Source: Egibacteraceae bacterium (GTDB taxonomy: Bacteria; Actinomycetota; Nitriliruptoria; Euzebyales; Egibacteraceae). From it: 32,000 nt of DNA. This document shows, in pieces, positions 1 to 26,200 of this stretch (positions within the stretch are counted from its first letter, which is position 1; the number at the start of each line of letters is the position of its first letter). Under the pieces are notes generated by a model. The model was not told the DNA's origin. It worked only from the letters and a program-made list of their open reading frames with translations, and did no database searches. The stretch lies in assembly GCA_040905805.1 (NCBI GenBank), contig JBBDQS010000048.1, positions 1 through 32,000 of the forward strand, in the 5' to 3' direction. A program made the position numbers and the translations under genes.

Positions 1-424
1 CCCCCCCACACCCGGCACAGCAGAGAATCGCCCTCGCGGGCTCGGGCGATTCACGAGTCAGCCGGGTGTCGCTCATCAGGCCCGCCTCACCTCCACCGCT
101 TGCTCCGACGCGTGCATCATAACCCGGGGCTCCACCGTGACCGCTTGCCGGTTCCGACGAGATGCCTGGTACGGGCGCTACCGCTGCGCGACGTGGGCGC
201 CTGGGGGCTGAGCTCGGCCGCCGGCAGAATTCCCCCCCTGACACTGGTGTGGAGTTGTATGATGCTGCTCCTTGCAACGTCGCGGTGCCCACCACGGTGG
301 CGTCCGCGGGCTCTGTTCCAAGGGACCGAGGTGTGCGGCGGGCAGGGTCGGGAGGCGAGCGAGCGACCGGGGCGGCTTGGCAGCGTGCCACCGCCGGTCC
401 GGCGCTCGGGCGAGGGGTCGGAGC

Positions 425-1195
425 ATGAAGCTGTCAGGTCGGGTCGCCCTGGTCACCGGGGCATCGCGTGGGATCGGGCGGGCCATCGCGTCGGCGCTCG
501 CGGCGGAGGGTGCGGCGGTGGCGGTCAACTACCGCTCCCGTCAATCCGAGGCCGACGAGGTCGTGCGCGAGATCGAGGATGGCGGAGGCAAGGCGATCGC
601 GGTCGGCGGCGACGTGGCCGACTACGAGGCGGCCGGCCGCATCGTCGAGGAGACCATCGGCGGGCTCGGCGGGTTGCACGTGCTCGTGAACAACGCGGGA
701 ATCGCTCGCGACGCGCTGATCTTCAACATGGAGCCCGAGGACTGGCTCGACGTCATGAAGGTCAACTTCGGCGGCGTGTTCAACTGCACGAAGGCCGTCA
801 TGTCCCACTTCATGGCGCAGCGAGACGGCGTCATCGTCAACATCTCCTCGGTCATGGGCGAACGCGGATGGACCGGCGAGTCGAACTACGCCGCCTCCAA
901 AGCCGCGGTCAACGCTTTCACCCGGTGCGCCTCCCTCGAGCTCGCGCGCTTCGGCATCCGCGTGAACGCGGTCCTGCCCGGCTTCGCCCCCACGGACCTC
1001 GTCGCCGGCCTCGTCGAGCGTGACGGCGGCAAGGGCATCAAGAAGCAGCTGCCGATGCGCGCGCTCGGCAAGGTCGAGGAGATCGCCAACGTCGCGACCT
1101 TCCTCGCCGGACCCGACTCGAGCTACATGACCGGCACCCTGGTCCCCGTCGACGGTGGCGCACAGGCGGTGCTGGGCCTCGGCCGGCCGGACTAG
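425..1195 (+). CDS. fabG: SDR-family 3-oxoacyl-ACP reductase (ketoreductase, FabG-like)
   Basis: ATG at 425 lies in frame inside track ORF 272..1195 and is preceded by GAGGGG..GGAG. Motifs: Rossmann 'VALVTGASRGIGRAIA', 'NNAG', and catalytic 'SNYAASKAAV' (YxxxK). The 51 upstream codons of the ORF are Arg/Gly junk. Confidence 0.9.
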   Translation: MKLSGRVALVTGASRGIGRAIASALAAEGAAVAVNYRSRQSEADEVVREIEDGGGKAIAVGGDVADYEAAGRIVEETIGGLGGLHVLVNNAGIARDALIFNMEPEDWLDVMKVNFGGVFNCTKAVMSHFMAQRDGVIVNISSVMGERGWTGESNYAASKAAVNAFTRCASLELARFGIRVNAVLPGFAPTDLVAGLVERDGGKGIKKQLPMRALGKVEEIANVATFLAGPDSSYMTGTLVPVDGGAQAVLGLGRPD

Positions 1196-1236
1196 GTTCC
1201 TCCGCAGGAGCTCCGCTACAGGAAAGGATCCGAGAA

Positions 1237-1647
1237 ATGACGCAGTTGACGAAAGACAAGATCAGCAGCGAGGTGCAGACGGCCGTGGCCGAGGCGCTCG
1301 CCCTCGAGGACGACGAGGTGACACTGGACGCCACCCTGATGGACGAGCTCGGCGCCGAGTCGATCGACCTGCTCGACATCCTGTTCCGGCTCGAACGGTC
1401 CCTCGGTGTGAAGATCCAGGCCTCGGACCTGGCCGACCACCTCCAGGGCGGCATCCCCGACGAGGAGTTCTCCGACGAGAACGAGATCATCAACGATCGC
1501 GGTCTGGCCCAGCTGAAGACCGCCATGCCGCAGATCGACACCGACGAGCTGTCGGGCAACCTCAAGGCCGAGGACGTCATCAACCTGTTCACGGTCCAGA
1601 ACCTGGTGGACATGGTCGCGGCCCGTGCCGAAACCTCCGCCGGCTGA
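1237..1647 (+). CDS. Acyl carrier protein, unusually long (136 aa)
   Basis: ATG at 1237 with GGAAAGGA 9 nt upstream. The protein is acidic and has the phosphopantetheine-attachment motif 'LGAESIDLLDILFRLE'. A helix-IV-like 'VINLFTVQNLVDMV' appears only after an insert of about 45-50 aa. Confidence 0.85.
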   Translation: MTQLTKDKISSEVQTAVAEALALEDDEVTLDATLMDELGAESIDLLDILFRLERSLGVKIQASDLADHLQGGIPDEEFSDENEIINDRGLAQLKTAMPQIDTDELSGNLKAEDVINLFTVQNLVDMVAARAETSAG

Positions 1648-2041
1648 GGGCGAGCAGGCCAGTCCGACCATTCGGGTCGGCATCGACATCGTCAGCATCG
1701 GTCGGGTCGAGCGCTTGCTGAGCGAGCAGCCCGCCGTCACGCAACGGGTGTTCACCGATCGCGAGCTCGAAGGCCTCGGCGGTCGTCGGCGGGTCCAACG
1801 GTTGGCCGGGCGCTTCGCCGCGAAGGAGGCGGTGCTGAAGGCCTTCGGCACCGGCCTCGGCCCGAGGATGAACTGGACCGACGTGGAGATCACGAGCGAA
1901 CCGGGTGGCCGACCCAGGGTGCGCCTGGGCGGGGCGGTGGCGGCGGCGGCACGACGCGGCGGGCTCGCGTCCGTGGACGTCTCCGTGGCGCACACCGGCG
2001 ATCTCGCCGTCGCCCACGCCATCGCGGTCTACCCGCGCTGA
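1625..2041 (+). CDS. acpS: Holo-ACP synthase (AcpS-type 4'-phosphopantetheinyl transferase)
   Basis: 'IRVGIDIVSIGRVERLL' and 'RFAAKEAVLKAFG' are typical AcpS motifs. GTG 1625 is the only canonical in-frame start upstream of GIDIV, and it overlaps the ACP gene by 23 nt. Confidence 0.8.
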   Translation: MPKPPPAEGEQASPTIRVGIDIVSIGRVERLLSEQPAVTQRVFTDRELEGLGGRRRVQRLAGRFAAKEAVLKAFGTGLGPRMNWTDVEITSEPGGRPRVRLGGAVAAAARRGGLASVDVSVAHTGDLAVAHAIAVYPR

Positions 2042-2057
2042 ATCGGGAGGCAAGAGG

Positions 2058-2510
2058 ATGCGCTTTCATCTCATCGACCGGATCGACAGCTACGAGCCGT
2101 CGACCGTCGTGCGGGCACGCAAGGTGACGTCGGTGAGCGAGTCGTACTGGGAGGACTCGCCGGCGGGCCCGATCATGCCCCCGCCGCTCGTGCTCGAGGC
2201 GCTGTGCCAGGCGGGGACCTGGCTGATCATGATCTCCACCGACACGCGCAAGCGCGCCGCGTTGCTCTCCGTCGCGTCGGTGTCCTTCCTCGCCGACGTG
2301 GAACCCGGAGATGTGATCGACCTCGTCGGCACGGTCGAGTCCATGACCGACGAGATGGCGGTTCTCTCGGGGACGGCCACCGTCGGGGACACCGCGGTGA
2401 TGGAGGCCCGCGACATCATGTGCGCGCTGATCGACGCCGAGGACCTCCAGGGCATCGAGGACACCAACCGCCTGCGCGACACGCTCCTGCGCGACGTGGT
2501 GGCGACATGA
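2058..2510 (+). CDS. Hot-dog fold FabZ/FabA-like dehydratase subunit lacking the catalytic His (Glu retained)
   Basis: ATG 2058 lies inside track ORF 1905..2510, with GGGAGG 8-13 nt upstream. The core 'FHLIDRI...WEDSPAGPIMPPPLVLEALCQAG' aligns to the FabZ motif HFPxxPhMPGVLxxEAxAQ but has no His. Confidence 0.75.
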   Translation: MRFHLIDRIDSYEPSTVVRARKVTSVSESYWEDSPAGPIMPPPLVLEALCQAGTWLIMISTDTRKRAALLSVASVSFLADVEPGDVIDLVGTVESMTDEMAVLSGTATVGDTAVMEARDIMCALIDAEDLQGIEDTNRLRDTLLRDVVAT

Positions 2511-3778
2511 AGCGGGTGGCGATCACCGGGATCGGTGCGGTCACGCCGCTCGGCAACGACGCCAAGACGACCTGGGCGGGGCTGATCGAGGGTCGCAGCG
2601 GCGTCACCCGGATCAGCACGTTCGACCCCGAGGGCTTCCCCGTGCGCATCGCCGGGACCGTGACCGACTTCGAGCTGGACCCGAGCTACGCCGACGAGAG
2701 CATGCGACGCCACCTGTCCCGCTCGGCGTCGTTCGGCCTGGCGGCCGCCGCCGAGGCGCTCGACTCCGCCGGGCTCGCCGACGCCTACCCGCCCGCGAGC
2801 CGCGGCGTGTCGGTCGCCAGCAGCGTGGGCCGACCGGAGCTGCAAGAGGTCAGCGACATCCTCGAGGAGTACGCCCGCACCGAGGGACGGCGGGTCCCGA
2901 GACAGTCGCCGTCCAGCGTCTTGCTGCGCGACCAGAACGTGGGCGCCCTGGCCATCAGCCGCTACGGTGACTGCCAGGGTCCGATGGTGAACATCAGCAC
3001 GGCCTGCGCCGGCGCGGTGCACGCGATCGGCGAGGGCTTCCGCCTGGTCCAGGAGGGCGACGCGAGCATGGTCGTCACCGGTGGGTACGACGCCCTGACG
3101 ACGTGGATGGACGTGTTGGGCTTCGCCCTCCTGGGGGCCCTGACGACCGAGTATGAGGACGAGCCGGAGCGCGCGTCACGGCCCTTCAGCGCCGACCGGG
3201 CCGGCTTCGTGATCGGCGAGGGGTCCGTCATGGTCGTGCTCGAGGACCTCGACGGCGCCCGCGGGCGGGGCGCACCCATCCTCGCCGAGCTCGCCGGATA
3301 CGGCAGCAGCATGAACGCCTACCGGATCACCGACGCGCCGTCGGACGGCAAGGGACCGGACGCCGCCATGGCCGCGGCCCTGCGGGAGTCGGGTCTCGAC
3401 GCCACCGACATCCACTACATCGCCGGTCACGGCACGGGAACCGCGGGCAACGACCTCTGCGAGACCGTCGCGATCAAGACGGTCTTCGGGCCGCACGCGT
3501 ACGACCTGGCGATCAGCTCCACGAAGTCGATGGCGGGCCACCTCACGTCTGGGGCCGGCGGTCTCGGGCTCCTGGCGACGATGGGCGCGGTGCGCGAACA
3601 CGTCGTCCCCCCGACGATCAACCTGGAGACGCCCGACCCGAAGCTGGACCTCGACTACGTCCCGAACACGGCCAGGCCGATGCGCGTCGACGCGGCGCTC
3701 GTCAACGCCTTCGCCTTCGGCGGCACCAACGCGGCGCTGGTCGTCCGCCGGTCCGACCCCGACGACGTGGAAGGTTGA
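2507..3778 (+). CDS. Beta-ketoacyl-ACP synthase (KS, FabF/KAS-II-like), catalytically complete
   Basis: ATG 2507 overlaps the upstream stop (ATGA). N-terminus is 'MKRVAITGIGAVTPLG'. The Cys-His-His triad is present in 'NISTACAGAVHA', 'AGHGTGTAGND' and 'TKSMAGHLTSGAG'; 'FAFGGTNAALVV' is also present. Confidence 0.9.
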   Translation: MKRVAITGIGAVTPLGNDAKTTWAGLIEGRSGVTRISTFDPEGFPVRIAGTVTDFELDPSYADESMRRHLSRSASFGLAAAAEALDSAGLADAYPPASRGVSVASSVGRPELQEVSDILEEYARTEGRRVPRQSPSSVLLRDQNVGALAISRYGDCQGPMVNISTACAGAVHAIGEGFRLVQEGDASMVVTGGYDALTTWMDVLGFALLGALTTEYEDEPERASRPFSADRAGFVIGEGSVMVVLEDLDGARGRGAPILAELAGYGSSMNAYRITDAPSDGKGPDAAMAAALRESGLDATDIHYIAGHGTGTAGNDLCETVAIKTVFGPHAYDLAISSTKSMAGHLTSGAGGLGLLATMGAVREHVVPPTINLETPDPKLDLDYVPNTARPMRVDAALVNAFAFGGTNAALVVRRSDPDDVEG

Positions 3779-4185
3779 GTCCCGTGCCTGCGCCCCTGGT
3801 CGTCCTCGACCGCGTCCTGAGCCTCGAGCGCGGGAAGCGCGGCAGCGCCATCCGCAACGTGCCGAACAGCCTGATTATCTTCGACACCCATTTCCCCCGC
3901 TTCCCGGTCCTGCCCGGCGTGCTGATTCTCGGCAGCATGGGCCTGCTCGCCGCGAAGGTGCTCGACGAGGGGGACGGGTGGTGGCGTCTCGCCCAGGCCG
4001 AGCGCGTGCGCTTCCGCCACTTCGTGCAACCCGGTGACCAGCTCGCCCTGTCCATCGAGGTCAAGGACGCCACGGCGTCCACGGCGACCTGCACGGCGAC
4101 CGCCAGCGTCGACGGCAAACCCGTCACGACGGTCGGCCGGCTGCGGATGGCCCGGGCGGAGCACGCCGAAGGGGGTGCTCGGTGA
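3775..4185 (+). CDS. FabZ-like hot-dog dehydratase subunit with catalytic His but Gly at the Glu position
   Basis: 'LVVLDRVLSLE...FDTHFPRFPVLPGVLILGSMGLLA' matches the E. coli FabZ core 'FLLVDRVL...[20 protein letters not shown]' closely. The start is TTG 3775 (overlapping the KS stop) or GTG 3784. Confidence 0.8.
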   Translation: MSPVPAPLVVLDRVLSLERGKRGSAIRNVPNSLIIFDTHFPRFPVLPGVLILGSMGLLAAKVLDEGDGWWRLAQAERVRFRHFVQPGDQLALSIEVKDATASTATCTATASVDGKPVTTVGRLRMARAEHAEGGAR

Positions 4186-5456
4186 GAGACGTCGTCGTCA
4201 CGGGCGTCGGCGTGCTCACCGCCCTCGGCGTCGGCGCGGAGGCGACGTGGAGCGGTCTCGTGGAGGGGCGCAGCGGGATCGGGCCGCTCGAAGGGTTCGA
4301 CGCGTCGACCCTGCACACGCGCATCGGTGCCGAGATTTCCGACTTCGACCCCACGGCGTTCGCCGAGCGGCGTTCGCTGCGGCTCATGACCCGCAACGAG
4401 CAGTTCGCCACCGCCGCCGCCAAGCTCGCCGTCGCGGACGCGGGGGCCGACCTGACCACCATCGACCCCTTGCGCACGGCGGCCTTCCTCGGTGGCAACA
4501 AGGAGATCTCCAACCCGATGAAGGTCGCCGACGCGATCCTCGCCTCACGCGGCCCCGACGGCGTGGCGACGATGGCCCGGCTGGCAACCGACGGTGTCAA
4601 GCAGTTCCACCCGTTGTTCTACGTCGAGGGCCTGCAGGCAGGGGCGCTGTTCTACGTCTCGGAGGCGTTCGGGATGAAGGGCGCCAACGCCTACTTCCAC
4701 GGCACCGCGGACTCGGGGATGACCGCGATCGGGCGGGCCTTCCGCGCCGTCCGCCGCGGCGAGGCGGACGTCGCCGTCGCCGGGGGGTTCGACGAAGCGG
4801 TCTCCTGGTGGTCGATGGCCAAGATGGACGGGCTCGGGGTGCTTTCCACCCGCAACGACCTCGGCGCCGAGGCCTTCCGGCCCTACGACCGCGACCGCAG
4901 CGGCTCGGTGCTCGGCGAGGGAGCGGCCGTCGTCGTGCTGGAGACCGCCGAGCAGGCCAAGGCCCGCGACGCCAACGTGTACGCCAAGGTCGTGGGCTTC
5001 GGCGGGGGCAACGACGCGGAAGGCCTGCTGACCCCCAATCCCGAAGGCCGTGGTCTGGTCAACGCGGTCCGTGCCGCCCTGCGCGACGCCGGCGACGACC
5101 TCGGCGCGATCGACTACGTGGCCACGCACGGGGCCGCGACCCGGCTGGGCGACCCGAGCGAGACGCTCGCCCTGCGCACGGCCCTCGGTGCGGCCGCAGA
5201 CGACGTGATGGCGAGCAGCATCAAGCCGGCCACCGGCCACCTCGTCGCGGCGGCCGGCGCACTCAACGTCGCCGTGGCGGCGCTGGCGGTCCGCCACGGT
5301 GTGGTGCCGCCGACGCTCAACCTCACGGACCCGGACCGCCACTGCGACCTCGACTGGGTCCCCGGGTCGGCGCGCGAGACCCCGGTCAACGGCGCCCTCG
5401 CGCTCGCGCGCGGCCTCGAGGGCCAGAACGTCGCGCTCGCCTTGCGGGCGGTGTGA
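4182..5456 (+). CDS. KS-like protein without active-site Cys (chain-length-factor-like partner; Asp at the Cys position)
   Basis: GTG 4182 overlaps the upstream stop (GTGA). It has the KS fold ('MRDVVVTGVGVLTALG', 'RPYDRDRSGSVLGEGAAVVVLE'). The nucleophile site reads 'FHGTADSGMTAIG', while both His are kept ('ATHGAAT', 'KPATGHLVAAAG'). Confidence 0.85.
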   Translation: MRDVVVTGVGVLTALGVGAEATWSGLVEGRSGIGPLEGFDASTLHTRIGAEISDFDPTAFAERRSLRLMTRNEQFATAAAKLAVADAGADLTTIDPLRTAAFLGGNKEISNPMKVADAILASRGPDGVATMARLATDGVKQFHPLFYVEGLQAGALFYVSEAFGMKGANAYFHGTADSGMTAIGRAFRAVRRGEADVAVAGGFDEAVSWWSMAKMDGLGVLSTRNDLGAEAFRPYDRDRSGSVLGEGAAVVVLETAEQAKARDANVYAKVVGFGGGNDAEGLLTPNPEGRGLVNAVRAALRDAGDDLGAIDYVATHGAATRLGDPSETLALRTALGAAADDVMASSIKPATGHLVAAAGALNVAVAALAVRHGVVPPTLNLTDPDRHCDLDWVPGSARETPVNGALALARGLEGQNVALALRAV

Positions 5457-5480
5457 CAACCACAGACAGGAGGAGATCCG

Positions 5481-7823
5481 ATGGCGACAGAGACTTCCCA
5501 CCCGGTTCGGGTGATGGTCGCGGGCCTCGGGGCCGTCACGTCCCAGGGCGCGACGCAGGCGTCGTTCTGGGATGGGGTCAAGAACGGGCGGGTGGCGATC
5601 CGTCCCGTCAACCACCTGCCCATGGACGGCTACCGTACGCGGATCGCGGGCGAGGTCGCCGAGGTCCCCACGCCCAAGCACGACTACCTCAGGCCGGGTG
5701 GCTTCTCCGACCGTGCCTACGACTTCGCGCTCACCGCGGCCGAGGAGGCATTCGACGCCGCGGGCATCGACTTCGACGCCGTTGCCCCTGAGCGCTGGGG
5801 GGTGGTCGTCGGCACCTGCAACGCGGGGCTCCTGAGCGGCGCCCACTGGTTCCGCCAGCGCATGAACAACCGGGAACCCGACCCGAGGCTCGTGCTGCTC
5901 GTGCCGCCGCAAGCCATCGCCGAGGCGATCGCCGGGGCGTACGGGTTGCGGGGCCCCGTCCTGTCGGTGGACACCGCCTGCGCCGCCGGGGCGAACGCCA
6001 TCGGCTACGGCGCCGAGCTCATCCGCCGCGGTCAGGCCGACGCCGTCGTGACCGGGGGCACCGACGGACTCTCAGACGTCCTCCTGGCCGGGTTCAACTC
6101 GCTCGAGTCGCTCTCGCCCGAGCCGGCCGCGCCGTACTCGAAGGACCGCCAGGGCCTGTCACTCGGTGAGGGCAGCGGCATGCTGGTGCTCGTCCGCGAC
6201 GACATCGCCGAGCGGCTCGGCGCCCCCATGCTGGCTGAGGTCGCGGGCTACAGCCTGTCGGCGGACGGCTACCACGCGACGGCACCGCATCCGGAGGGCT
6301 TCGGGGCGGCACGGGCCATCCAGGGCGCGCTGCGCGCCGCGGGCGTCTCCACGGCCGACGTGGACTACGTGAACAGCCACGGCACCGGTACGTCGAAGAA
6401 CGACCCTGCGGAGACCAGGGCGACCAAGGTGGGGCTCGGCGAGGAGGACGCCCGGCGGGTCGCGGTGAGCAGCACCAAGTCCATGGTCGGGCACCTCCTC
6501 GGCGCCGCGGGGGCGGTGGAGGGCATCGTGACGGTCCGGGCGATCGAGGAGCAGCTCGCCCCGCCGACCGCCAACTTCACCGAGGCGGACCCGGACTGCG
6601 ACCTCGACTACGTGCCGAACGTGAACCGGGCCATGACCATCGACGTGGCGGTGTCGAACAACTTCGCCTTCGGCGGCGCCAACTGCTCCGTCGTGTTCAG
6701 AGCGCCCGGGGCCGCCGTTGCCGCCCACGCCGTCCCGCCGCCTGATCGGGTGGTGGTGACCGGGATCGGGGCCCTGACTGCGGCCGGGACGACGCTCGAG
6801 GCGCTGTACGAGGCGGCGGCCGGCGGCCGTGACCTCACCGTGTCCGAGGACGGCGTCCCACTCGGCCGGGTCGACGTGCGGCCGGGTGACTTCCTCACCC
6901 CCCGCGAGCGCAAGCGCGTCGATCGGCTCGGGGTCTTCTCGATCATCGCCGCCCGCTCGGCCCTCACCGACGCGGGCATCGAGATCGAGGAGGGCAACCG
7001 CGAGCGTGTCGGTGTGATCCTCGGCACCGGTGTCGGCCCGATGGAGTCGATGGAGGACTTCTCCGCTCCGCTGTTCGCCGAGGGGCCGCGAGCGGCCAAC
7101 CCCGCGATCTTCCCCAACACCGTGTACAACGCCGCGGCGGGACAGGTCGCCATCAAGGTCGGGGTGGTGGGTCCGACGACCACCGTCACGGCCGGCCATG
7201 CGGCAGGCTCGTCCTCGCTTGTCTGTGCCTACGACCTCGCGGCCGCAGACCATGCGGACGTGCTGATCGCGCTCGGGGCAGATGCGCTGACCGACACGGT
7301 CATCGCCGCCTACCGGGGGCTCGGGGTGCTGGGCGACGGCAGCGGGAAGGGCTTCCCGCTGGCGGAGGCCGGCGTGGCGCTGGTGTGCGAGCGCCATGGC
7401 GCCGCGGCGGCCCGGGGACACATCCCCTACGGGGAGATCCTCGGCTACGGGATCGCCTCCGACGGTCTCGGCATCGGACGGTGGGACCCTGAGGGAAACG
7501 GCATGGAGCGGGCGATGCGCCTGGCGTTGGAGCAGGCCGGGCTGGAGGCCGACCGGATCGAGGCGGTGTACGCGAGCGCCGCCGGGTTGGCGGAGGCCGA
7601 CGAGCCGGAGGCCGGCGCCATCCGGCGGGTGTTCGGCGACGGGGCCGAGGTCGTCGAGGTCAAGCGGCGGCTCGGGGAGCCGATGGGCGCCGGCGGCAGC
7701 CTGTGCGCGGCTCTGGCCCTGGAGGCGTTCCGGCGCGGGGACCGTGTGAATCCCGTCGTGGTCAACTCGAGCTCGCTCGGCGGCACGCACTTCGCGGTGG
7801 TGCTCGGCCCCGCCGGTGGATAG
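5481..7823 (+). CDS. Didomain protein: complete KS (aa ~1-410) fused to a fully degenerate KS-like domain (aa ~425-780)
   Basis: RBS AGGAGGAG lies upstream of ATG 5481. The N-terminal half has 'VDTACAAGANAIG', 'NSHGTGTSKND', 'TKSMVGHLLGAAG' and 'FAFGGANCSVVF'. The C-terminal half starts again with 'RVVVTGIGALTAAG' but reads 'TVTAGHAAGSS', 'YASAAGLAEAD' and 'LGEPMGAGG' at the Cys/His/His sites. Confidence 0.85.
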   Translation: MATETSHPVRVMVAGLGAVTSQGATQASFWDGVKNGRVAIRPVNHLPMDGYRTRIAGEVAEVPTPKHDYLRPGGFSDRAYDFALTAAEEAFDAAGIDFDAVAPERWGVVVGTCNAGLLSGAHWFRQRMNNREPDPRLVLLVPPQAIAEAIAGAYGLRGPVLSVDTACAAGANAIGYGAELIRRGQADAVVTGGTDGLSDVLLAGFNSLESLSPEPAAPYSKDRQGLSLGEGSGMLVLVRDDIAERLGAPMLAEVAGYSLSADGYHATAPHPEGFGAARAIQGALRAAGVSTADVDYVNSHGTGTSKNDPAETRATKVGLGEEDARRVAVSSTKSMVGHLLGAAGAVEGIVTVRAIEEQLAPPTANFTEADPDCDLDYVPNVNRAMTIDVAVSNNFAFGGANCSVVFRAPGAAVAAHAVPPPDRVVVTGIGALTAAGTTLEALYEAAAGGRDLTVSEDGVPLGRVDVRPGDFLTPRERKRVDRLGVFSIIAARSALTDAGIEIEEGNRERVGVILGTGVGPMESMEDFSAPLFAEGPRAANPAIFPNTVYNAAAGQVAIKVGVVGPTTTVTAGHAAGSSSLVCAYDLAAADHADVLIALGADALTDTVIAAYRGLGVLGDGSGKGFPLAEAGVALVCERHGAAAARGHIPYGEILGYGIASDGLGIGRWDPEGNGMERAMRLALEQAGLEADRIEAVYASAAGLAEADEPEAGAIRRVFGDGAEVVEVKRRLGEPMGAGGSLCAALALEAFRRGDRVNPVVVNSSSLGGTHFAVVLGPAGG

Positions 7824-7832
7824 ACCTCGGCG

Positions 7833-9380
7833 GTGACGACCACGGATCCCACCGCAGACACCTACGACGTCATCGTCGTGGGCGCGGGGCTCGGCGGGCT
7901 GTCGGCCGCCGCGCTCCTGGCCAAGGCCGGGCAGCACGTGCTCGTCGTCGAGCGCCAGGACGGGCCGGGTGGGTACGCGCATACGTTCCGCCGCGACGGG
8001 CGGGTCTTCGACCCGGCCATCCACGTCCTCGTGGAGGGCAAGGAGGGACGCAGCGTCGACCTGCTGCTGCGCCACCTCGAGGTGCGGGAGCGCTGCGACC
8101 TCGTCCGTCTTCCCGACCTCTACCGGACGGCCTTCCCGGACTTCGAGCTGACGGTCCCCTCCGGTCACGACGCGATCATCGACGCGCACGTCAGCCGCTT
8201 CCCCCACGAGGCGGATGGGATCCGGGCGCTCTACGATCTGCACGCCCGCTTCTTCCAGGACGCCACGCACCTGGCCATGCAGGTCTCCCTGCGCAATCTC
8301 GACGACATGGTCCGGGACTTCCCGACGTTCTTCCGTTACCGCAACGCCACCGTCGCCGACGTCCTCGACGAGTGCCTGCAGGATCCCCGCGCCAAGGCGG
8401 TGTGCTCGGCGATGTGGCCGTACCTGGGGCTGCCGCCGTCACGCCTGTCGTTCTTCGTCTTCTCCCAGGTCACCAGCGTGGTGGTCGACGGGGGCTCCTA
8501 CTACAGCCGCGGTAGCTTCCAGCGCGTGGCGGACGCGCTCGTCGAGGCACTCGCCCGCGACGGCGGGGAGCTCGCCGTCGGCACCGAGGTGACCAGCATC
8601 GTCGTGGAGGGGGGCCAGGCGCGCGGTGTGCGGCTGGCTGACGGCCGGCAGCTGCGTGCCCCCGTCGTCATCTCCAACGCCGACGCACGGCTCACGTTCG
8701 AGCAGCTGGTCGGTCCCGAGCACCTGCCGGCGCGGTTCGTCAGGCGTCTCCAGCGCTTCGAGCCCGCCCTGTCGGCCTACGTGCTCTACGCCGCCACCGA
8801 CATGGACCTGGCCGCCGCCGGCGCGGTGCACGAGACCTTCGTCTACCGCCACTGGGACCACGACGACACCTACCGCGACATCCTTGCCGGCGAGCCGGGT
8901 GGGATGTGGGTGAACGTCCCCACGATCGTGGACCCCTCCCTGGCGCCGCCCGGCGAGCACCTGCTCATCCTCACCGCCCTCGCCCCCTACGAGCTCGAGC
9001 GTCCCTGGGACCAGGAGAAGGATCGCTTCAGCGAGTCGGTGATGGCCGATCTCGACCGTCTCTACCCGGGGGTCTGCGGGCACATCACCTTCGCCGAGTC
9101 CGCGACGCCGGAGACGCTCCAGCGGCGCACCCTGAACCACCGCGGCGCAATCTACGGCTGGGCGGTGACGCCCCAGCAGGTGGGCAGCAAGCGCCTCCAC
9201 CACGACACCCCCATCGACGGGCTCTACCTGTCGGGGCACTGGACCGAGGAGGGTCCGAGCTCCTTCCGCGTCCTGCTGTCGGGGGTCATGACAGCCCGGA
9301 TGGTGGCGGCACACCGGGGGCTTGCCCACGACGCGGTCCCGACCTTCCGTCCCACCGACCTCCCCGACCTGGTCGGGTAG
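7833..9380 (+). CDS. Phytoene-desaturase-family (CrtI-like) FAD/NAD(P)-dependent oxidoreductase
   Basis: GTG start. The N-terminal dinucleotide fold 'YDVIVVGAGLGGLSAAALLAKAGQHVLVVERQDGPGGYA' and a C-terminal 'LYLSGHWTEEGPS' FAD motif match the layout typical of the CrtI/amine-oxidase family. Confidence 0.8.
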   Translation: MTTTDPTADTYDVIVVGAGLGGLSAAALLAKAGQHVLVVERQDGPGGYAHTFRRDGRVFDPAIHVLVEGKEGRSVDLLLRHLEVRERCDLVRLPDLYRTAFPDFELTVPSGHDAIIDAHVSRFPHEADGIRALYDLHARFFQDATHLAMQVSLRNLDDMVRDFPTFFRYRNATVADVLDECLQDPRAKAVCSAMWPYLGLPPSRLSFFVFSQVTSVVVDGGSYYSRGSFQRVADALVEALARDGGELAVGTEVTSIVVEGGQARGVRLADGRQLRAPVVISNADARLTFEQLVGPEHLPARFVRRLQRFEPALSAYVLYAATDMDLAAAGAVHETFVYRHWDHDDTYRDILAGEPGGMWVNVPTIVDPSLAPPGEHLLILTALAPYELERPWDQEKDRFSESVMADLDRLYPGVCGHITFAESATPETLQRRTLNHRGAIYGWAVTPQQVGSKRLHHDTPIDGLYLSGHWTEEGPSSFRVLLSGVMTARMVAAHRGLAHDAVPTFRPTDLPDLVG

Positions 9381-12844: not shown

Positions 12845-13927
12845 TCATGCGGGGGTGGCGGCGGTCCAGTCGACGACGACGCCTGCGTAGATCCACTTGG
12901 TCGCCTCCACACCGATGAGCACCACCCGCTGTTCGGGTTGGATCATGCCCCTGCGCCACGCGTGGTCGAGGAACAGCGGCACCGCCGCGGAGCCGCAAGC
13001 CCCGGTCATGGCGAGGTTGTCGAAGATCTTGCCCTCCATCGCCTTCCACTCGTCGGTCAGCAGACCGTGCTCGGCAAGCGAGTCGAGCATCCACCCGACG
13101 TTGCCCTCGGGGATCAGGCACCAGTCGACGCTCTCGGCGGCGATGCCGCTGCGGCCGAGGGTGTCCGCGAGCGAATCCACCACCATCTGCGGGGTGAAGT
13201 CGCCGGCGCCGACCACGTCGACCTGGAGGTCGACCAGGCGCTTCCTGCTCAGCTGCTCGTGGATCGGCGCGTGCGTGCCGCCACCGATCGAGTGGATCCC
13301 CGCCTTCCTGGTGCCACCGATGGCGCACTGCGCCGAGCCGATGATCCCGCCCTGGTCGCTGTCGGTGGCCTGTAGCACGAAGGCTCCGGCCCCGTCCCCG
13401 AACATGTACAGGGGCAGCCGGTCACGCATGCGGATCTTGTTCGGGTCCTTGCCCACGAACACCGGAGCCATGACCGGCGAGATCGCCTCGCTGCCCACGA
13501 CGAGGGCGAACTCGTGGTCACCGCGCTCCAGCATCATCCGCGCGATGTCGAGCCCCTGGACACCGCCCGCGCCCCCGGACCGCAGCTCCATGGTGGCGCA
13601 GCGCTCGAGACCGAGCCGCTCCTGCAGCAGGTTCACACACGCGGGCAGGTGGTACTCGGGGGTCCCGGTGGACTGGATCATCAGGCCGAGCTGACCCGCT
13701 TCGACCCCGGCGGTCTCCAAGGCCCTGACCGTCGCCTTGTAGGCCATGTCGGTGTTGCTCTCGTGGTGCTCGCCGGTCTCGGGGTCGATCATCCAGTACC
13801 GCTGCTGGATCGAGATGCCCTCCTGCACGTCGGGGGAGAGCGACCCGACCAACCGCTCGATCTGGTCGTTGTCGATCGGGTCACCGGGCTGGTAACCCCC
13901 CGTGCCGATGATGTGCACCCTGCCCAT
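12845..13927 (-). CDS. KAS-III (FabH)-fold protein lacking the canonical Cys-His-Asn triad
   Basis: By eye it is collinear with E. coli FabH ('FGDGAGAFVL', 'LVVGSEAIS', 'SAAVPLFLD'). The three catalytic positions read Gly ('ELRSGGAGGVQGL'), Pro/Glu ('DWCLIPEGNVGW') and Ala ('MTGACGSAAVP'). Confidence 0.8.
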   Translation of the reverse strand: MGRVHIIGTGGYQPGDPIDNDQIERLVGSLSPDVQEGISIQQRYWMIDPETGEHHESNTDMAYKATVRALETAGVEAGQLGLMIQSTGTPEYHLPACVNLLQERLGLERCATMELRSGGAGGVQGLDIARMMLERGDHEFALVVGSEAISPVMAPVFVGKDPNKIRMRDRLPLYMFGDGAGAFVLQATDSDQGGIIGSAQCAIGGTRKAGIHSIGGGTHAPIHEQLSRKRLVDLQVDVVGAGDFTPQMVVDSLADTLGRSGIAAESVDWCLIPEGNVGWMLDSLAEHGLLTDEWKAMEGKIFDNLAMTGACGSAAVPLFLDHAWRRGMIQPEQRVVLIGVEATKWIYAGVVVDWTAATPA

Positions 13928-18410: not shown

Positions 18411-18929
18411 CTAGTCCCGCAGGTACCCGTACCGGCCCCGGTGGAAGATCAAGGGCCGGGGCGCATCCGCATCGGCGCCGATGGCGAGCACCTCACCGAC
18501 GAAGATCTCATGGTCTCCGCCCGGATGCTGGTCCGCCACCCTGCAGTCCATGAACGCGGCCACCCCATCGATGACCGGCGAGCCTGTGACCACCTCGCGG
18601 TGGGGGATCCCGCGGAAGGCGGCGGTGCCCCTGGGGCGATCACGAGACGCGAAGTAGTTGGACAGGACCTCCTGCTCGGCGGTCAGGATGTTGACCGCGA
18701 ACACCCCATTGCGCTCGAGAGCCTCGCTGCCCTGCGTGCCGCTGATGACGCACACGAGGATGAGGGGCGGGTCGAGGGACAGCGACGAGAAGGCATTGGC
18801 GGTCATCCCGTACGGCTCGTCCTGACCCTGCGTGGTGATGACCGTCACGCCGGTTGCGAAGGCCCCCATGACCGCCCGGAACTCCTTGACGCCGAAGGGC
18901 TCCACGGCCAGCTGCTGCAGCCTCTGCAT
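18411..18929 (-). CDS. NAD(P)H-flavin reductase (flavin_reduct domain, HpaC-like)
   Basis: 'FRAVMGAFATGVTVITT...PYGMTANAFSSLSLDPPLILVCV' and 'GDHEIFVGEVL' are typical of small flavin reductase components. The ATG shares one base with the upstream stop (TGATG at 18927-18931). Confidence 0.85.
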   Translation of the reverse strand: MQRLQQLAVEPFGVKEFRAVMGAFATGVTVITTQGQDEPYGMTANAFSSLSLDPPLILVCVISGTQGSEALERNGVFAVNILTAEQEVLSNYFASRDRPRGTAAFRGIPHREVVTGSPVIDGVAAFMDCRVADQHPGGDHEIFVGEVLAIGADADAPRPLIFHRGRYGYLRD

Positions 18930-19819
18930 CAGGCATCTGCCCCAGCGTGCGACGGCCCCCCGCCGAGCTCCCCGAGGCGGCGCTGGATGACGTCGTCGAG
19001 GTTTTGCGTGGTGGACAGCGACTGGGCGACCAGCGACCGGAATGCCTCCCGCGGCATCGCCAAGAGCGTCGTTGGGGCCACTGCCCGAACCGTGGCGGTG
19101 CGGGGGATGTCGCGCAGGATCGCCACCTCGCCGAAGAACTGCCCCGGCCCGAGGGTGGCCACCGTCTGTTGCGAACCGCCGTTCTCGCGGACGACCTCGA
19201 CCTCGCCTTCGACGATGATGAAGAACTTGTCGGCCGGCCCCCCCTGCCGGACGATGACCTCCCCGGACTCCACCTGCACGGTCTGCAGCCGGGCCTGGAG
19301 GCCGGCGATCTCGGCCGGCGGCAGGTCCCGGAGGACGTTGAAGACCTCGGTGCGCTGGAACACCGACCCGAGACCCCTCGCGTTCTCCGGCGCCGCGCTC
19401 GTGTTGTCGATGAACTGCACCCGGGTGGGCGCGATGCGGAAGAACGCGATGTGGCTGTTCTCGGTCCCCGCCACCTCGGGGAACTTCACGCCGAACCGCT
19501 GCACGGCGTGCTCGATCTGCGCGGCGTCGAGGATCTGGCGGGCCTCGCCCTCGCCCTGGATGCCCTTGGTCTGCGTCCAGTCAGCGGTGTACTGGTCGAC
19601 CGTGAAGGACACGGCCGGGTTCTGGTCGATGTGCTGGGCGGTGACGGAGTCCGGCCGGGTCCACACGTACAGCGTCAACCCGTCGCTCGCGTACAGCAGC
19701 GTCGCGGCGTGCGGCAGACCGCCCGACGATGCCGTGGCCAGGGTCAAGGTCTGCTGGGACTCCAGGTATGCCAGCGCCTTGGGCGAGACCTCGGGTGCGG
19801 CATCCTCCGGATCGGTCAT
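18929..19819 (-). CDS. Fusion protein: PNPOx-like FMN-binding split-barrel domain + C-terminal cNMP-binding domain
   Basis: The N-terminal half has 'TLTLATASSGGLPHAATLLYASDGLTLYVWTRPDSVTAQHIDQNPAVSFTV' (pyridoxamine-5'-phosphate-oxidase-like). The C-terminal half has 'VESGEVIVRQGGPADKFFIIVEGEV...LGPGQFFGEVAILRDIPRTATVRA' (CNB). GGAGGGGG lies upstream of the ATG at 19819. Confidence 0.8.
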   Translation of the reverse strand: MTDPEDAAPEVSPKALAYLESQQTLTLATASSGGLPHAATLLYASDGLTLYVWTRPDSVTAQHIDQNPAVSFTVDQYTADWTQTKGIQGEGEARQILDAAQIEHAVQRFGVKFPEVAGTENSHIAFFRIAPTRVQFIDNTSAAPENARGLGSVFQRTEVFNVLRDLPPAEIAGLQARLQTVQVESGEVIVRQGGPADKFFIIVEGEVEVVRENGGSQQTVATLGPGQFFGEVAILRDIPRTATVRAVAPTTLLAMPREAFRSLVAQSLSTTQNLDDVIQRRLGELGGGPSHAGADA

Positions 19820-19865
19820 GGCGTCCCCCTCCAGGAGCGTCGTGCTCGTACCCTATCGCAGCACC

Positions 19866-22343
19866 TCAGATGGCCGTACGGCGCCGCAGCACCAGCCAGG
19901 TGATGGCGGTGAAGGCCACGATGAAGGCACCCATGATGAGCCAGTTCTGCCAGATGGCGCGGGAGAAGCTGTCGCTGTACTGCAGCGCCAACGCCGCTCC
20001 CACGGGGTTCTGGGACTCCTCGAAGAGGTCGAGGAGGTTGGCTGCCCTGCCGAGAGCCTCGAACCCCCACCGCAGTGCGATGATATTGGAGAGCTCGCGA
20101 CCGACGGTGTTCATCTCGGACACCGCGACGATCGCTCCCGACAGCAGCACCTGCGGCAGGATCCACGCCGACAGCAGGTCGGTCGCCACCTGCGACGTGG
20201 GCGCGATGGCCGACGTAAACAGCGAGAAGGCCAGTCCGACCAGGGCGATGACGAAGAGCGTGATCATCAGGGGGGCGTACACGTTCAAGCCCTCGTCGGG
20301 CAGGCGGTCGGTCACCCACATCATCGCCACCATGACCGTGACCGCCAGGGCGAGCACGGGCGCGAGGAACGTGGTCTTCGACAAGAGGTAGGGGAAGACG
20401 GCGAGATTCACCAGCCGCTCTCGTCGGAAGATGGCGAACTCCTTCACGATCTCCTGCACGCCGTACAGCAGGCCGAAGAGGAAGGCGGTCATCGACAGGA
20501 AGAAGAGCAGCTGGAACGCCGACGTGGGGTTGTTGGGCCCCGGTTCGAAGAGGTCCGTGCGGAACAGCGCGATCAGCAGGGCGGCGAAGATCACCGGCTG
20601 GGCGAAGAGCGGGATCATCCGGGGTGGGTTGCGCACGTACAGCTCGGCGGTGCGACGGCTCAGCACGGCGAACTGGCGGACCCACAAGCCCAAGCCGCGA
20701 GCGGGCCGCGCGATCGAGGCCCCCGCCGCGGCCTGCGCGGGCGTCGAATCGGCCGGTCGCTGTTGGTCGGCCTTCATCGCACGGTACTCGGGGGATTCCC
20801 GGAAGCGCGCCGCCCACTCCTCCGGCGTGCCCTCGTTCTCCAGCTTCACGTAGATCTCGTCGAAGACCTCCACGCCGAAGTACTCCAACGCCCGCTTGGG
20901 GGGACCGGCGAATGCCAGGTGGCCGCCGCCTGCGAGGAACACGATCTTGTCGCACAGGCCGACGTTGCTCGTCGCGTGCGTGGTGAGGAGCACGGTGCTG
21001 CCCGCTCGTGCCAGGTCGCGCATCAGCGTCATCATCGAGGCGTCGGTGGCGGGGTCCAGACCTGAAGTGGGCTCGTCGAGGTAGAAGACCCGGGGTCGGG
21101 TCAACAGCTCCACCCCGATGCTGGCCCGCTTGCGCTGCCCGCCGCTCAGCTTGTCGACGCGAAGACCGGCCTGCTCGGTCAGCGAGAGCTCTTCCAGAGC
21201 CCGGTCGACGGCTTTGCCCCGCTCCTCGGGCGTGGTGTCGCCCGGCAGGCGCAGACGCGCGGCGAAGTCCAGCGTGACCCGCAGGGGTAGCTCGGTGTGG
21301 ATGATGTCGTCCTGCGGCACGTACCCGAGCGTCGTGCGGTACAGGGCCCGCTGCGCGTAGTAGTCGCCGCCGTTGTACAGCACCTGCCCGCCGGTGGCGG
21401 GGCGCACGCCCGAGAGGGCGTCCATGAGGGTGCTCTTTCCCGCCCCGCTGCCACCGACGATCGCCACGAGCTCGCCGGGCAGCACCGTCAGCGAGACATT
21501 CTGGAGGAGGTTCTTGCCCTTCGTGACCACCTTGCGCAGCCCGGACGCGTCGATGCGGATCCCGCGTGGTTCCGTGACCCGTTGCAGCTCGCGCCGGTCG
21601 AACAGCAGACGCTGGTCCGCCAACCAGATCTGGTCCCCGTCCTTGAGCTCGGCACGTCGGACCTCCGCGCCGTTCAGGAAGGTGCCGTTCGCGCTGCCGA
21701 GGTCGGCCAGCTCGTAGCTGTCGCCGAAGCGGCGCACCACCGCGTGACGGGCCGACACGACGGTGGAGTCCAGCACGACGTCGTTGTCAGGATGGCGCCC
21801 GATCCGCAGCTCCTGGCGATCCGCGAGCATGGCCGCGAGGTTCAGGTGCTCGATCGCGTACTCCTGCGAGGTGCGGCTCCGAAGCTCGGCCGCCTGCTGG
21901 ACGGCTTCCGCGAGCGCAGGTTGCTGCTCCAGCAGCTGCCGGAAGTCGTTCGCGCCGATCATCCACAGCCGAGCAGCAGTCTCCGCACGCACCGTGGCGC
22001 TGCGGGGCTGGCCGCTGGTCAGGGACATCTCGCCGAAGAACTCCCGGGGCCCCAAGCGAGCGATCGTCTTCGGTGGATCGCCGGAGCCGGCCTGGACCAG
22101 GAGCGTCCCGAGCTCGATCAGGTAGGCCGCGTCGCCGGCGTCACCCTCGCGGACCACGACGTCTCCTGCCGCGACGTCAACGGGCCGCAGCAGCTTCGCG
22201 ACGTCGGGCAGCGACAGGGGGGACAGCAGCTGGAAGATGCCGATCCTGCTCAGCATGTCGATGCGACGGCTGTCGCTTGCCGCCGCCCTGGTCGGGATGG
22301 AAGTCGTGGCGTGGAATGGTGGTTTGTGTTCCTGCCCGACCAT
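19866..22343 (-). CDS. ABC half-transporter (NBD + ABC-2-type TMD) with an N-terminal cNMP-binding + FHA module
   Basis: ATG 22343 has GGAGG 6 nt upstream; the track uses TTG 22349. CNB: 'FFGEMSLTSGQPRSATVRA'. FHA: 'RIGRHPDNDVVLDSTVVSARHAVV...LGSANGTFLNG'. Walker A 'GGSGAGKST', signature 'LSGGQRKR', Walker B 'VFYLDEPTSGLD', followed by about 6 TM helices. Confidence 0.9.
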   Translation of the reverse strand: MVGQEHKPPFHATTSIPTRAAASDSRRIDMLSRIGIFQLLSPLSLPDVAKLLRPVDVAAGDVVVREGDAGDAAYLIELGTLLVQAGSGDPPKTIARLGPREFFGEMSLTSGQPRSATVRAETAARLWMIGANDFRQLLEQQPALAEAVQQAAELRSRTSQEYAIEHLNLAAMLADRQELRIGRHPDNDVVLDSTVVSARHAVVRRFGDSYELADLGSANGTFLNGAEVRRAELKDGDQIWLADQRLLFDRRELQRVTEPRGIRIDASGLRKVVTKGKNLLQNVSLTVLPGELVAIVGGSGAGKSTLMDALSGVRPATGGQVLYNGGDYYAQRALYRTTLGYVPQDDIIHTELPLRVTLDFAARLRLPGDTTPEERGKAVDRALEELSLTEQAGLRVDKLSGGQRKRASIGVELLTRPRVFYLDEPTSGLDPATDASMMTLMRDLARAGSTVLLTTHATSNVGLCDKIVFLAGGGHLAFAGPPKRALEYFGVEVFDEIYVKLENEGTPEEWAARFRESPEYRAMKADQQRPADSTPAQAAAGASIARPARGLGLWVRQFAVLSRRTAELYVRNPPRMIPLFAQPVIFAALLIALFRTDLFEPGPNNPTSAFQLLFFLSMTAFLFGLLYGVQEIVKEFAIFRRERLVNLAVFPYLLSKTTFLAPVLALAVTVMVAMMWVTDRLPDEGLNVYAPLMITLFVIALVGLAFSLFTSAIAPTSQVATDLLSAWILPQVLLSGAIVAVSEMNTVGRELSNIIALRWGFEALGRAANLLDLFEESQNPVGAALALQYSDSFSRAIWQNWLIMGAFIVAFTAITWLVLRRRTAI
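21597..22256 (-). repeat. Copy A of a ~0.66-kb dispersed direct repeat encoding the CNB+FHA module (in the ABC gene)
   Basis: It is collinear at DNA level with 25329-25994. For example, 21611-21654 'gctggtccgccaaccagatctggtccccgtccttgagctcggca' matches 25342-25385 'gctggtccgccagccggatctggtcaccgtccttgagctcggcc'. Confidence 0.7.
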
Positions 22344-22493
22344 GCTCAACCTCCATCAAACGACCCTGATGGCGGACCTCCGTTTGCGGACAGGAACCGC
22401 CCTGAGTTCCCCGACAGGCTTGCCCCGCGTGCAGGTCGGATCGTAGCGCCTCGGAGCCGTCAGGCACAGGTCTGATCCGTTCCTATCCGTGCG

Positions 22494-26084: not shown

Positions 26085-26200
26085 GCCGCACCCTCCGGTC
26101 CGCGGACTCGGGCGCCAGGTGAGGGAGCTCGCCCCTCGCCTTGCTCGACCACGCCGTTCAACGCGTCCCACACGCGCCGGGTCATCCTAGCAGCGAGGCA

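Follow-up and report, generated by a model that had tools for sequence, protein, structure and literature searches.

In pathways to type II polyketides and related lipids, chain length is set by pairs of a catalytic ketosynthase (KS) and a chain-length factor (CLF), which as two separate proteins are difficult to produce and to investigate. In polyunsaturated fatty acid (PUFA) synthases, a KS-CLF didomain shares elongation with a second KS (KS_A) by chain length; the youssoufene (YsfB-C/D-E/J-K) and cinnamoyl-peptide (KS1-CLF1/KS2-CLF2) pathways employ two to three KS/CLF pairs for successive elongation stages; and in triacsin biosynthesis, Tri6/7 form the KS/CLF, Tri11/12 are two dehydratases (DHs) and Tri13 is an extra KS homolog. 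According to a preprint, the KS/CLF-like heterodimer amxFabF2/amxFabFmut of anammox cluster I (9S5H/9S5I) decarboxylates the malonylated acyl carrier protein (malonyl-ACP) to start synthesis. Here, a 32,000 nt stretch from an Egibacteraceae bacterium, called the window, was analysed (assembly GCA_040905805.1, contig JBBDQS010000048.1, positions 1 to 32,000 of the forward strand; GC content about 70%). It encodes two catalytic KSs with a Cys-His-His triad and two homologous partners without the Cys: a fused protein, KS::CLF, carries one of each on a single chain (with His573 at the Cys position of its second half), and a discrete FabF-like ketosynthase, here called KS1, is encoded near a full-length FabF paralog with Ala176 at that position, here called KS(A-D/E). 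Such genes are annotated only as generic 'beta-ketoacyl-ACP synthase', leaving what appears to be a common actinobacterial lipid or pigment pathway without a name.

The likeness to the PfaC KS-CLF of Moritella marina (6RIW) lies in a KS followed by a Cys-less CLF on one chain, in the same order and with a superposing fold; the PfaC system also has a second KS that shares elongation by chain length, and FabA/FabZ-type dehydratases. However, the window didomain is a free-standing 780-aa protein and not the head of a KS-CLF-DH-DH megasynthase; its ACP, ketoreductase (KR) and DH are separate genes and no enoyl reductase (ER) was found; identity is 18%, the nearest sequence relatives being FabF proteins; and the CLF half has an invariant His at the Cys position among the 120 homologs listed. 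By their descriptions, the youssoufene, cinnamoyl-peptide and globisporamic acid (Gla) polyketide synthases (PKSs) likewise have discrete ACP, KR and DH, no ER and two or three KS units, each in charge of one stage of polyene elongation, together with their own isomerase acting during elongation and in-cluster cyclases. Unlike the window, their KS/CLF pairs are always two proteins and their isomerase is reportedly glutathione-dependent (YsfG) rather than CrtI-like; further, the window contains no nonribosomal peptide synthetase. Anammox cluster I shares a FabF-derived KS with a dead FabF partner, a special ACP (amxACP), a FabZ (amxFabZ) and a CrtI-family/phytoene-dehydrogenase homolog, and the fused N half has 9s5h_B (7e-86) as one of its best solved relatives; in contrast, amxFabFmut has Val/Thr at the Cys position, has lost both His and is unfused, and its cluster includes a B12-radical SAM enzyme that is absent at the window locus.

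Aromatic KS-alpha/CLF pairs (actinorhodin, 1TQY) and KS^Q loading domains also combine one catalytic with one Cys-less thiolase-fold partner, and such a Cys-less site reportedly primes by malonyl decarboxylation. The dead domains of the window, however, lack the defining Gln, having Ala-Asp/Glu and His instead. None of the four KS halves has a specific model in NCBIfam; they all score best against FabF models and not PKS KS models. Finally, the aryl-polyene (ApeO-ApeC with ApeR, ApeI/ApeP) and triacsin systems share a KS/CLF pair with an extra KS, and two hot-dog DH genes thought to dimerise; in contrast to the window, ApeC is a half-size CLF, there is no fusion, and a partner with an acidic +1 residue is not described there.

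The free-standing KS::CLF protein

The KS::CLF gene is a single unbroken frame of 780 codons, in whose product a Pfam profile search finds two ketoacyl-synt N+C pairs. The original prediction, made from the sequence alone, had described the 5481-7823 product as a didomain with a complete KS over residues ~1-410 and its Cys at codon 5979-5981, and both points held: the N half contains Cys167 (TGC, 5979-5981), His300, Lys333 and His338. It had also read TAGHAAGSS in a C half devoid of all three catalytic residues. That motif lies at 7188-7214, and alignment to Thermus FabF places His573 (CAT, 7197-7199) at the Cys, and Ser699 and Glu733 at the first and second catalytic His, respectively; a segment of ~26 residues (PPTxN...DLDYVP) is deleted and Lys728 is kept. 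Conservation was counted in the 120 homologs listed out of more than 2,100 matches; these 120 are 62-72% identical and come from independent contigs and genomes. Cys167, His300, Lys333, His338 and His573 are present in 120/120 and Glu733 in 118/120. The feature is real and under selection. Its homologs number in the thousands, across Streptomyces, Kribbella, Jiangella, Solirubrobacterales, Firmicutes and other groups, and a natural single-chain KS::CLF could ease structural and engineering work on chain-length control.

AlphaFold2 calculations, based on a 42-sequence alignment, model the whole chain with a mean predicted local distance difference test score (pLDDT) of 88.5 and a predicted template modelling score (pTM) of 0.93; the pLDDT dips (mean 66) in the block 411-420. 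The top PDB match of this model in Foldseek is the PfaC KS-CLF, 6RIW (E 6e-49, query TM-score (TMq) 0.82, 893 columns, 18% identity). Because the whole chain superposes on 6RIW while single FabF chains span only one half of the model (TMq ~0.47), the two halves are predicted to pack on each other as in a KS dimer, forming an intramolecular KS/CLF pseudo-heterodimer. The earlier impression that no fused KS-CLF had been characterised does not stand, since the PfaC KS-CLF didomain already has a crystal structure. A fusion inside the PfaC megasynthase is already known, and what is apparently new is the free-standing form: the literature covered, which was partial, yielded only PUFA-synthase papers and no free-standing KS::CLF protein in a dissociated system. 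CylH/I of the GBS cyl operon were considered as a candidate for another known didomain KS, but the publications covered give no domain structure for them. By sequence, the protein does not belong to the Pfa family, with only a weak TIGR02813 PfaA match (79 bits against a cut-off of 1010); it ends at residue 780, outside any multidomain Pfa subunit, and neither tandem ACPs nor an ER occur among the window open reading frames (ORFs) scanned.

In a phmmer search of 1.84 billion cluster representatives, the closest relatives of the C half are mostly proteins of 750-860 aa with two KS-like stretches, and those analysed all have Cys-His-Lys-His in their N half. The Cys position of their C halves is variable (H, G, A, Q, E, S, F and others), and the Lys and an Asp/Glu at the second-His position are often kept. 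The named didomain relatives comprise many Streptomyces, Paenibacillus, Moorella and one Helarchaeota metagenome-assembled genome (MAG), with generic names throughout. In a neighbour-joining (NJ) tree built on 405 columns with 100 bootstraps, the clades of the N halves mirror those of the C halves, and discrete KS and CLF genes of other phyla, from loci of Syntrophaceae and Fibrobacterota (L006, L003), are nested inside them. This is the pattern expected if the fusion arose from an adjacent KS/CLF gene pair, and it suggests such an origin.

Several other loci were recorded during these searches. L002, L003, L006, L034 and L079 were rejected as fusions, being adjacent discrete KS and KS-like genes under one tblastn match, and were kept as outgroups. 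A pattern scan of genome contigs with generic FabF motifs gave one true fused homolog, in a long-read Solirubrobacterales MAG (L001, 10001-12357), where the fused gene is split over several frames, probably by indel errors, and KS1 and KS(A-D/E) lie on the opposite strand, ~5.5-9 kb downstream of it. A Paenibacillus-type minimal operon (L088, Logan SRR6824398 contig, 237-5514) consists of ACP, KS::CLF (812 aa), KR, a FabA/ApeI-like DH and a radical SAM gene; its gene content shows the free-standing didomain as the apparent sole KS of a small pathway. An ENA contig (L089, ERZ27247713, 1-13521) encodes a KS::CLF of 824 aa whose CLF half has Arg at the Cys position; two KS-like genes, one with Ser and one with Gly at the Cys column, lie directly upstream, and further genes encode an aromatase/cyclase (Polyketide_cyc2), a KR, two ACPs and a malonyl-CoA acyltransferase (MAT).

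The Cys-less FabF paralog KS(A-D/E)

An Asp had been predicted at the nucleophile position of the 4182-5456 product. The codon (GAC, 4710-4712) and the retention of both His were correct, but the register was not: alignments with mafft, hmmalign and phmmer against solved FabF structures place Ala176 at the FabF nucleophile position and Asp177, which is the GAC codon, at +1. The alignment is ungapped from Gly167 (-9) to Ala182-Ile183-Gly184 (+6 to +8), and equating T-A-D with T-A-C requires a one-residue register shift on both sides. The suggested survey of this site for Asp, Gln or other residues was carried out on 120 listed homologs, which also underlie the other KS(A-D/E) counts. Position 176 is occupied by Ala (100), Gly (11), Ser (5) or Thr (4), and position 177 is always acidic, with Glu in 68 and Asp in 52; no Cys occurs within ±5 residues of the site in any of the 120, and a Gln at the Cys site appears in neither this family nor the fused C-half family (120 listed homologs each). 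His316 is found in 107, Lys348 in 114, His353 in 110 and Glu413 in 97 homologs, the last of these in the gating loop, which reads G-L-E-G where FabF has G-F-G-G.

The AlphaFold2 model of KS(A-D/E) (pLDDT 90.6, pTM 0.91) has a complete FabF fold, with Foldseek TM-scores of ~0.9 to FabF structures that include the C164A and C164Q mutants and no CLF chain among its top 50 matches. With this full FabF fold and the His/Lys/His set kept, the protein is not CLF-like in fold or active site, and its earlier designation as a CLF type of partner is not borne out. Its identity is 35% to KS1 and 31% to the fused N half. Compared to FabF, KS1 and the fused N half, it has an insertion of ~25-30 residues at ~105-145 (window 4494-4616), where the model's confidence is lowest (pLDDT <50 at residues 144-150); the corresponding part of FabF helps to form the dimer interface and the acyl tunnel of the partner. 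In the NJ tree, KS(A-D/E) sequences form a clade with 100% bootstrap, which joins two Planctomycete discrete partners and the CLF clade at 50-61% bootstrap; in those Planctomycete partners, the Cys column or a position next to it holds Asp or Glu.

The Planctomycete loci (L034, 9974-12638; L079, 9989-12800) each have a FabF-like KS beside a KS-like partner whose Cys column holds Glu/Asp and which keeps the first His and has Asn in place of the second. The L079 pair lies near a MAT gene and the housekeeping genes nusA and infB and, because of these neighbours, may serve primary lipid synthesis.

As in KS^Q domains, the nucleophile of KS(A-D/E) is replaced with both His and the Lys kept, which is not the case for the fused C half; the Gln itself is absent from KS(A-D/E). 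Ketoacyl-ACP synthases with Cys-to-Ala/Ser/Gln mutations reportedly lose condensation and keep or gain malonyl decarboxylation, and the natural Ala176 site with its His/His/Lys set fits that pattern. A Cys-less partner that retains both His and has gained an invariant acid bears on whether the dead subunit of a KS pair primes by decarboxylation. The Ala-Asp/Glu partner is also apparently new, with no precedent found in the literature, of which coverage was partial. Asp113 of Iga11 was considered as a precedent for the acid and rejected, being a tunnel residue of a catalytic KS and not at the nucleophile site.

Two proposed condensing units and alternative readings

KS1 has the full Cys-His-His triad that had been ascribed to the 2507-3778 product (Cys167, TGC 3005-3007; His308; His345), together with Lys340 and an intact gating loop, FAFGG. 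DHa, KS1, DHb and KS(A-D/E) are chained by 4-nt overlaps: the DHa stop and KS1 start overlap in ATGA, and DHb overlaps both of its neighbours, through TTGA and GTGA. The KS::CLF gene has its own AGGAGG ribosome-binding site and begins 24 nt past the preceding stop. Six loci share the gene order DHa, KS1, DHb, KS(A-D/E), KS::CLF: that of the window and those of a Streptosporangiaceae genome (L081), of Kribbella (L082), of Streptomyces sp. B1866 (L083) and sp. col6 (L085), and of a Dehalococcoidia MAG (L084). Further, two match lists hold at least 12 pairs of KS::CLF and KS(A-D/E) homologs on contigs of matching size.

The two dehydratases have complementary defects. DHa has lost the catalytic His (SYWEDSP for GHFP) and kept the Glu (LVLEALCQA), and DHb has kept the His (DTHFPRFP) and has Gly at the Glu position; an alignment of 5-6 loci finds the same defects throughout L081-L085. 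Because a FabZ active site takes its His from one subunit and its Glu from the other, a DHa/DHb heterodimer would hold exactly one complete active site. The KSIII (FabH)-like protein has Gly/Glu/Ala in place of the Cys-His-Asn triad; in the five loci compared, the His and Asn are lost in all and the Cys is kept in two. It is thus a third non-canonical thiolase-fold protein of the cluster and is unlikely to condense a primer, which makes malonyl decarboxylation a likely primer source.

These features are probably those of the core of a dissociated type II highly reducing PKS/fatty acid synthase-like system with two elongation units, a reading held with moderate confidence; an equivalent label is a dissociated PUFA-synthase-like system. 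As expected for a highly reducing type II PKS, KS, KR, DH and ACP are separate genes, and no ER domain was detected among the window ORFs scanned with Pfam or by NCBIfam. Such a synthase would use a dedicated ACP of 136 aa to build an acyl chain that is unsaturated and probably a polyene. The assignment of its second unit to KS::CLF is well supported: one polypeptide would carry one active site (Cys167/His300/His338), and the dead C half (His573/Ser699/Glu733) would close and shape the acyl tunnel in the manner of a chain-length factor. The first unit would consist of KS1 with the adjacent KS(A-D/E) as a non-condensing partner, a pairing that is suggested by gene order, 4-nt translational coupling and co-occurrence. 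With Ala at the nucleophile position, KS(A-D/E) could not be acylated. It still retains the His/His/Lys set that binds and decarboxylates malonyl-ACP, and has gained two conserved acids, Asp/Glu177 beside the former Cys and Glu413 in the gating loop. It may supply the acetyl primer by malonyl-ACP decarboxylation, with the acid as proton donor, and/or set the chain length of the early cycles. The two units would then split the elongation cycles by chain length, and the ACP, the KR and the DHa/DHb heterodimer, with its single composite His+Glu site, would be common to both. The CrtI-like flavoenzyme may isomerise or desaturate the chain, and the SnoaL-like proteins and flavin monooxygenases may tailor it.

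The original prediction had proposed two elongation modules, and much of it stands: there are two catalytic and two Cys-less units, one pair of them fused, and modules for different phases have a direct precedent in the youssoufene/cinnamoyl and PUFA systems, which split elongation stages. The pairing of the two discrete proteins remains a suggestion; with regard to separate polypeptides in a 1:1 complex, the fused pair is one polypeptide predicted to pack as a pseudo-dimer, and a KS1/KS(A-D/E) complex is suggested by synteny and translational coupling. Several observations weigh against the two-unit reading. KS1 lacks nothing required of a homodimeric FabF, KS(A-D/E) resembles FabF far more than any known CLF does, and the clustering of the latter protein with CLF-type sequences is weakly supported (bootstrap 50-61%) and may reflect long-branch attraction. 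In addition, two extra active-site carboxylates could repel the malonyl carboxylate, which would weigh against a decarboxylase role, and the tolerance of both Asp and Glu at position 177 indicates a site without strict geometry. With SnoaL, anthrone-oxygenase-like and quinone-reductase-like genes as neighbours, part of the chain could stay unreduced and be aromatised, and the AlphaFold2 model is no evidence on activity.

An alternative is an arrangement of three independent units, in which KS::CLF would be the sole KS/CLF unit, KS1 a homodimeric FabF/ApeR-like helper for some chain lengths, and KS(A-D/E) a homodimeric malonyl-ACP decarboxylase that makes only the acetyl-ACP primer. KS1 passes a FabF subfamily cut-off with its triad and gating loop intact, KS(A-D/E) resembles the C164A/C164Q forms of FabF with His/Lys/His kept, aryl-polyene clusters pair a KS/CLF heterodimer (ApeO-ApeC) with a homodimeric KS (ApeR), and the degenerate KSIII-like protein implies a need for a dedicated primer source. 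This arrangement is nevertheless rather unlikely: the count of two catalytic and two dead halves is balanced, DHa, KS1, DHb and KS(A-D/E) are so tightly coupled in translation as to suggest complexes with equimolar subunits, the interleaved DH genes with complementary defects point to at least DHa/DHb as a heterodimer, and the KS(A-D/E) insertion falls where FabF dimers line the partner's tunnel. It is less probable again that KS(A-D/E) performs other chemistry through Asp/Glu177, Glu413 and the two His, such as acyl translocation between carriers, cyclisation, double-bond isomerisation or hydrolytic release. An acid in all 120 homologs and a gating-loop Glu in 97 do indicate a selected function and not decay, and non-condensing KS homologs are known, with Tri13 moving an acyl group between ACPs; AmcF-AmcG reportedly elongate and cyclise, and AmcF matches occur in NCBIfam. 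However, no specific family match was obtained, the best matches being all FabF; the AmcF similarity is far below its cut-off (177 vs 325 bits); and the charged network may do no more than fill a dead pocket, which is also the apparent role of the conserved Lys728-Glu733 pair in the CLF half.

Artefact or decay, by which a sequencing error would have joined two genes into the 780-aa ORF or neutral drift would have left the Cys-less domains as pseudogenes, is extremely improbable. The broken frames of L001 show that such errors do occur in assemblies. A merger had been set beforehand as a test, yet the frame is unbroken, the linker has no stop codon, and the 120 listed homologs are likewise fused, at 765-812 aa in one frame, in many independent assemblies that include isolate genomes from Streptomyces and from one Streptosporangiaceae bacterium. 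Moreover, His573, Glu733 and Asp/Glu177 are invariant or nearly so, GC content at third codon positions is 0.91-0.92 across both the KS::CLF and KS(A-D/E) ORFs, and both AlphaFold2 models are confident.

Within the two-unit reading, a more far-reaching version can be offered tentatively, as a possibility that is more doubtful than the reading itself. KS(A-D/E) may represent a new class of chain-initiation subunit, a dedicated malonyl-ACP decarboxylase whose neighbouring carboxylate protonates the enolate and whose obligate partner is KS1, and KS::CLF may be an ancestral-type portable form of the PUFA KS-CLF; together they might constitute an unnoticed, widespread actinobacterial synthase for a polyene lipid or pigment.

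Operon layout and related loci

The plus strand carries a compact operon in the order KR, ACP, phosphopantetheinyl transferase (PPTase), DHa, KS1, DHb, KS(A-D/E), KS::CLF and CrtI-like gene, followed by tailoring genes (Table 1). The latter encode two SnoaL-like proteins, an F420H2-quinone-reductase-like protein, an anthrone-oxygenase-like protein and an FAD monooxygenase. Searches of the window for Rfam families and tRNAs were negative.

Table 1. Coordinates and supporting evidence of the features discussed, in window positions
Feature	Position	Strand	Evidence or remarks
KR (short-chain dehydrogenase/FabG-like)	263..1195	+	Pfam adh_short_C2 4e-62, KR 2e-18; high GC at third codon positions in this frame; stop-to-stop ORF, true start not fixed
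ACP, 136 aa	1237..1647	+	NCBIfam ACP models; core = residues 5-66; motif GAESIDLLD
AcpS-type PPTase, start codon uncertain	1625..2041	+	AcpS-like GIDIVSI...FAAKEAVLKA pattern in translation
DHa, FabZ-like hot-dog dehydratase subunit	2058..2510	+	Pfam FabA 6e-08, NCBIfam FabZ 2.5e-17
KS1, discrete FabF-like ketosynthase	2507..3778	+	Cys167/His308/Lys340/His345; passes NF005589 FabF subfamily cut-off
DHb, FabZ/ApeI-like dehydratase subunit	3775..4185	+	Pfam FabA 2.5e-15, weak ApeI-like match
KS(A-D/E), full-length FabF paralog without nucleophile	4182..5456	+	Alignment, AlphaFold2, Foldseek
KS::CLF, N half, catalytic KS, residues 1-409	5481..6707	+	Cys167/His300/Lys333/His338
KS::CLF, linker of ~14 residues APGAAVAAHAVPPP, no stop codon	6708..6749	+	Reading frame
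KS::CLF, C half, CLF-like thiolase fold, residues 424-780	6750..7823	+	His573/Ser699/Glu733; Lys728 kept
CrtI/carotenoid-isomerase-family FAD enzyme	7833..9380	+	Pfam Amino_oxidase 2.6e-24
KSIII (FabH)-like, degenerate triad	12845..13927	-	Cys112->Gly, His244->Glu, Asn274->Ala
Cyclic-nucleotide-binding + PNPOx-like domain	18929..19852	-	
Cyclic-nucleotide-binding + FHA + ABC ATPase + ABC-2 permease	19866..22355	-	
Cyclic-nucleotide-binding + FHA + MMPL/RND transporter	22494..26186	-	

In related loci, the genes near the core encode an ACP, a PPTase or MAT, a KR, a KSIII-like protein, SnoaL proteins and a CrtI-like enzyme. The KSIII-like gene directly follows KS::CLF in L081 and L085, and is separated from it by the KR in L082 and by the KR and ACP in L083. 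The CrtI-like gene is present in L081, L082 and L085, at differing positions; in NCBIfam, the window protein matches crtI_fam (3e-55) and carot_isom (5e-54), both below the cut-off, and its best solved relative is CrtI (4dgk). Its assignment as a cinnamoyl isomerase was considered and is unsupported, the cinnamoyl isomerase being described as glutathione-dependent. Tailoring genes vary from locus to locus, which makes the six-gene core look like a portable module for chain building. The conserved cassette, made up of ACP, PPTase, DHa, KS1, DHb, KS(A-D/E), KS::CLF, KR and the CrtI-like enzyme, is found in many Actinobacteria and is uncharacterised.

The match of the ACP to solved ACPs in phmmer is confined to residues 4-70, leaving a C-terminal extension of ~70 aa unmatched; homologous PP-binding genes of 132-140 aa occur in L081, L082, L083 and L085. 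A dedicated AcpS-type PPTase gene follows this extended ACP, and its syntenic counterparts in L082, L083 and L084 match PF01648 ACPS. In the Kribbella locus (L082, 17117-21290), acetyl-CoA carboxylase subunits (carboxyltransferase, biotin carboxyl carrier protein and biotin carboxylase) and a MAT lie directly downstream, and an MMPL transporter and a sigma factor upstream; this gene set suggests that the locus covers its own malonyl supply and exports a lipid-like product. In the window, three adjacent minus-strand genes (18929-26186) each fuse a cyclic-nucleotide-binding domain to an unusual partner (Table 1) and may, judging from their domains, form a cyclic-nucleotide-regulated export system.

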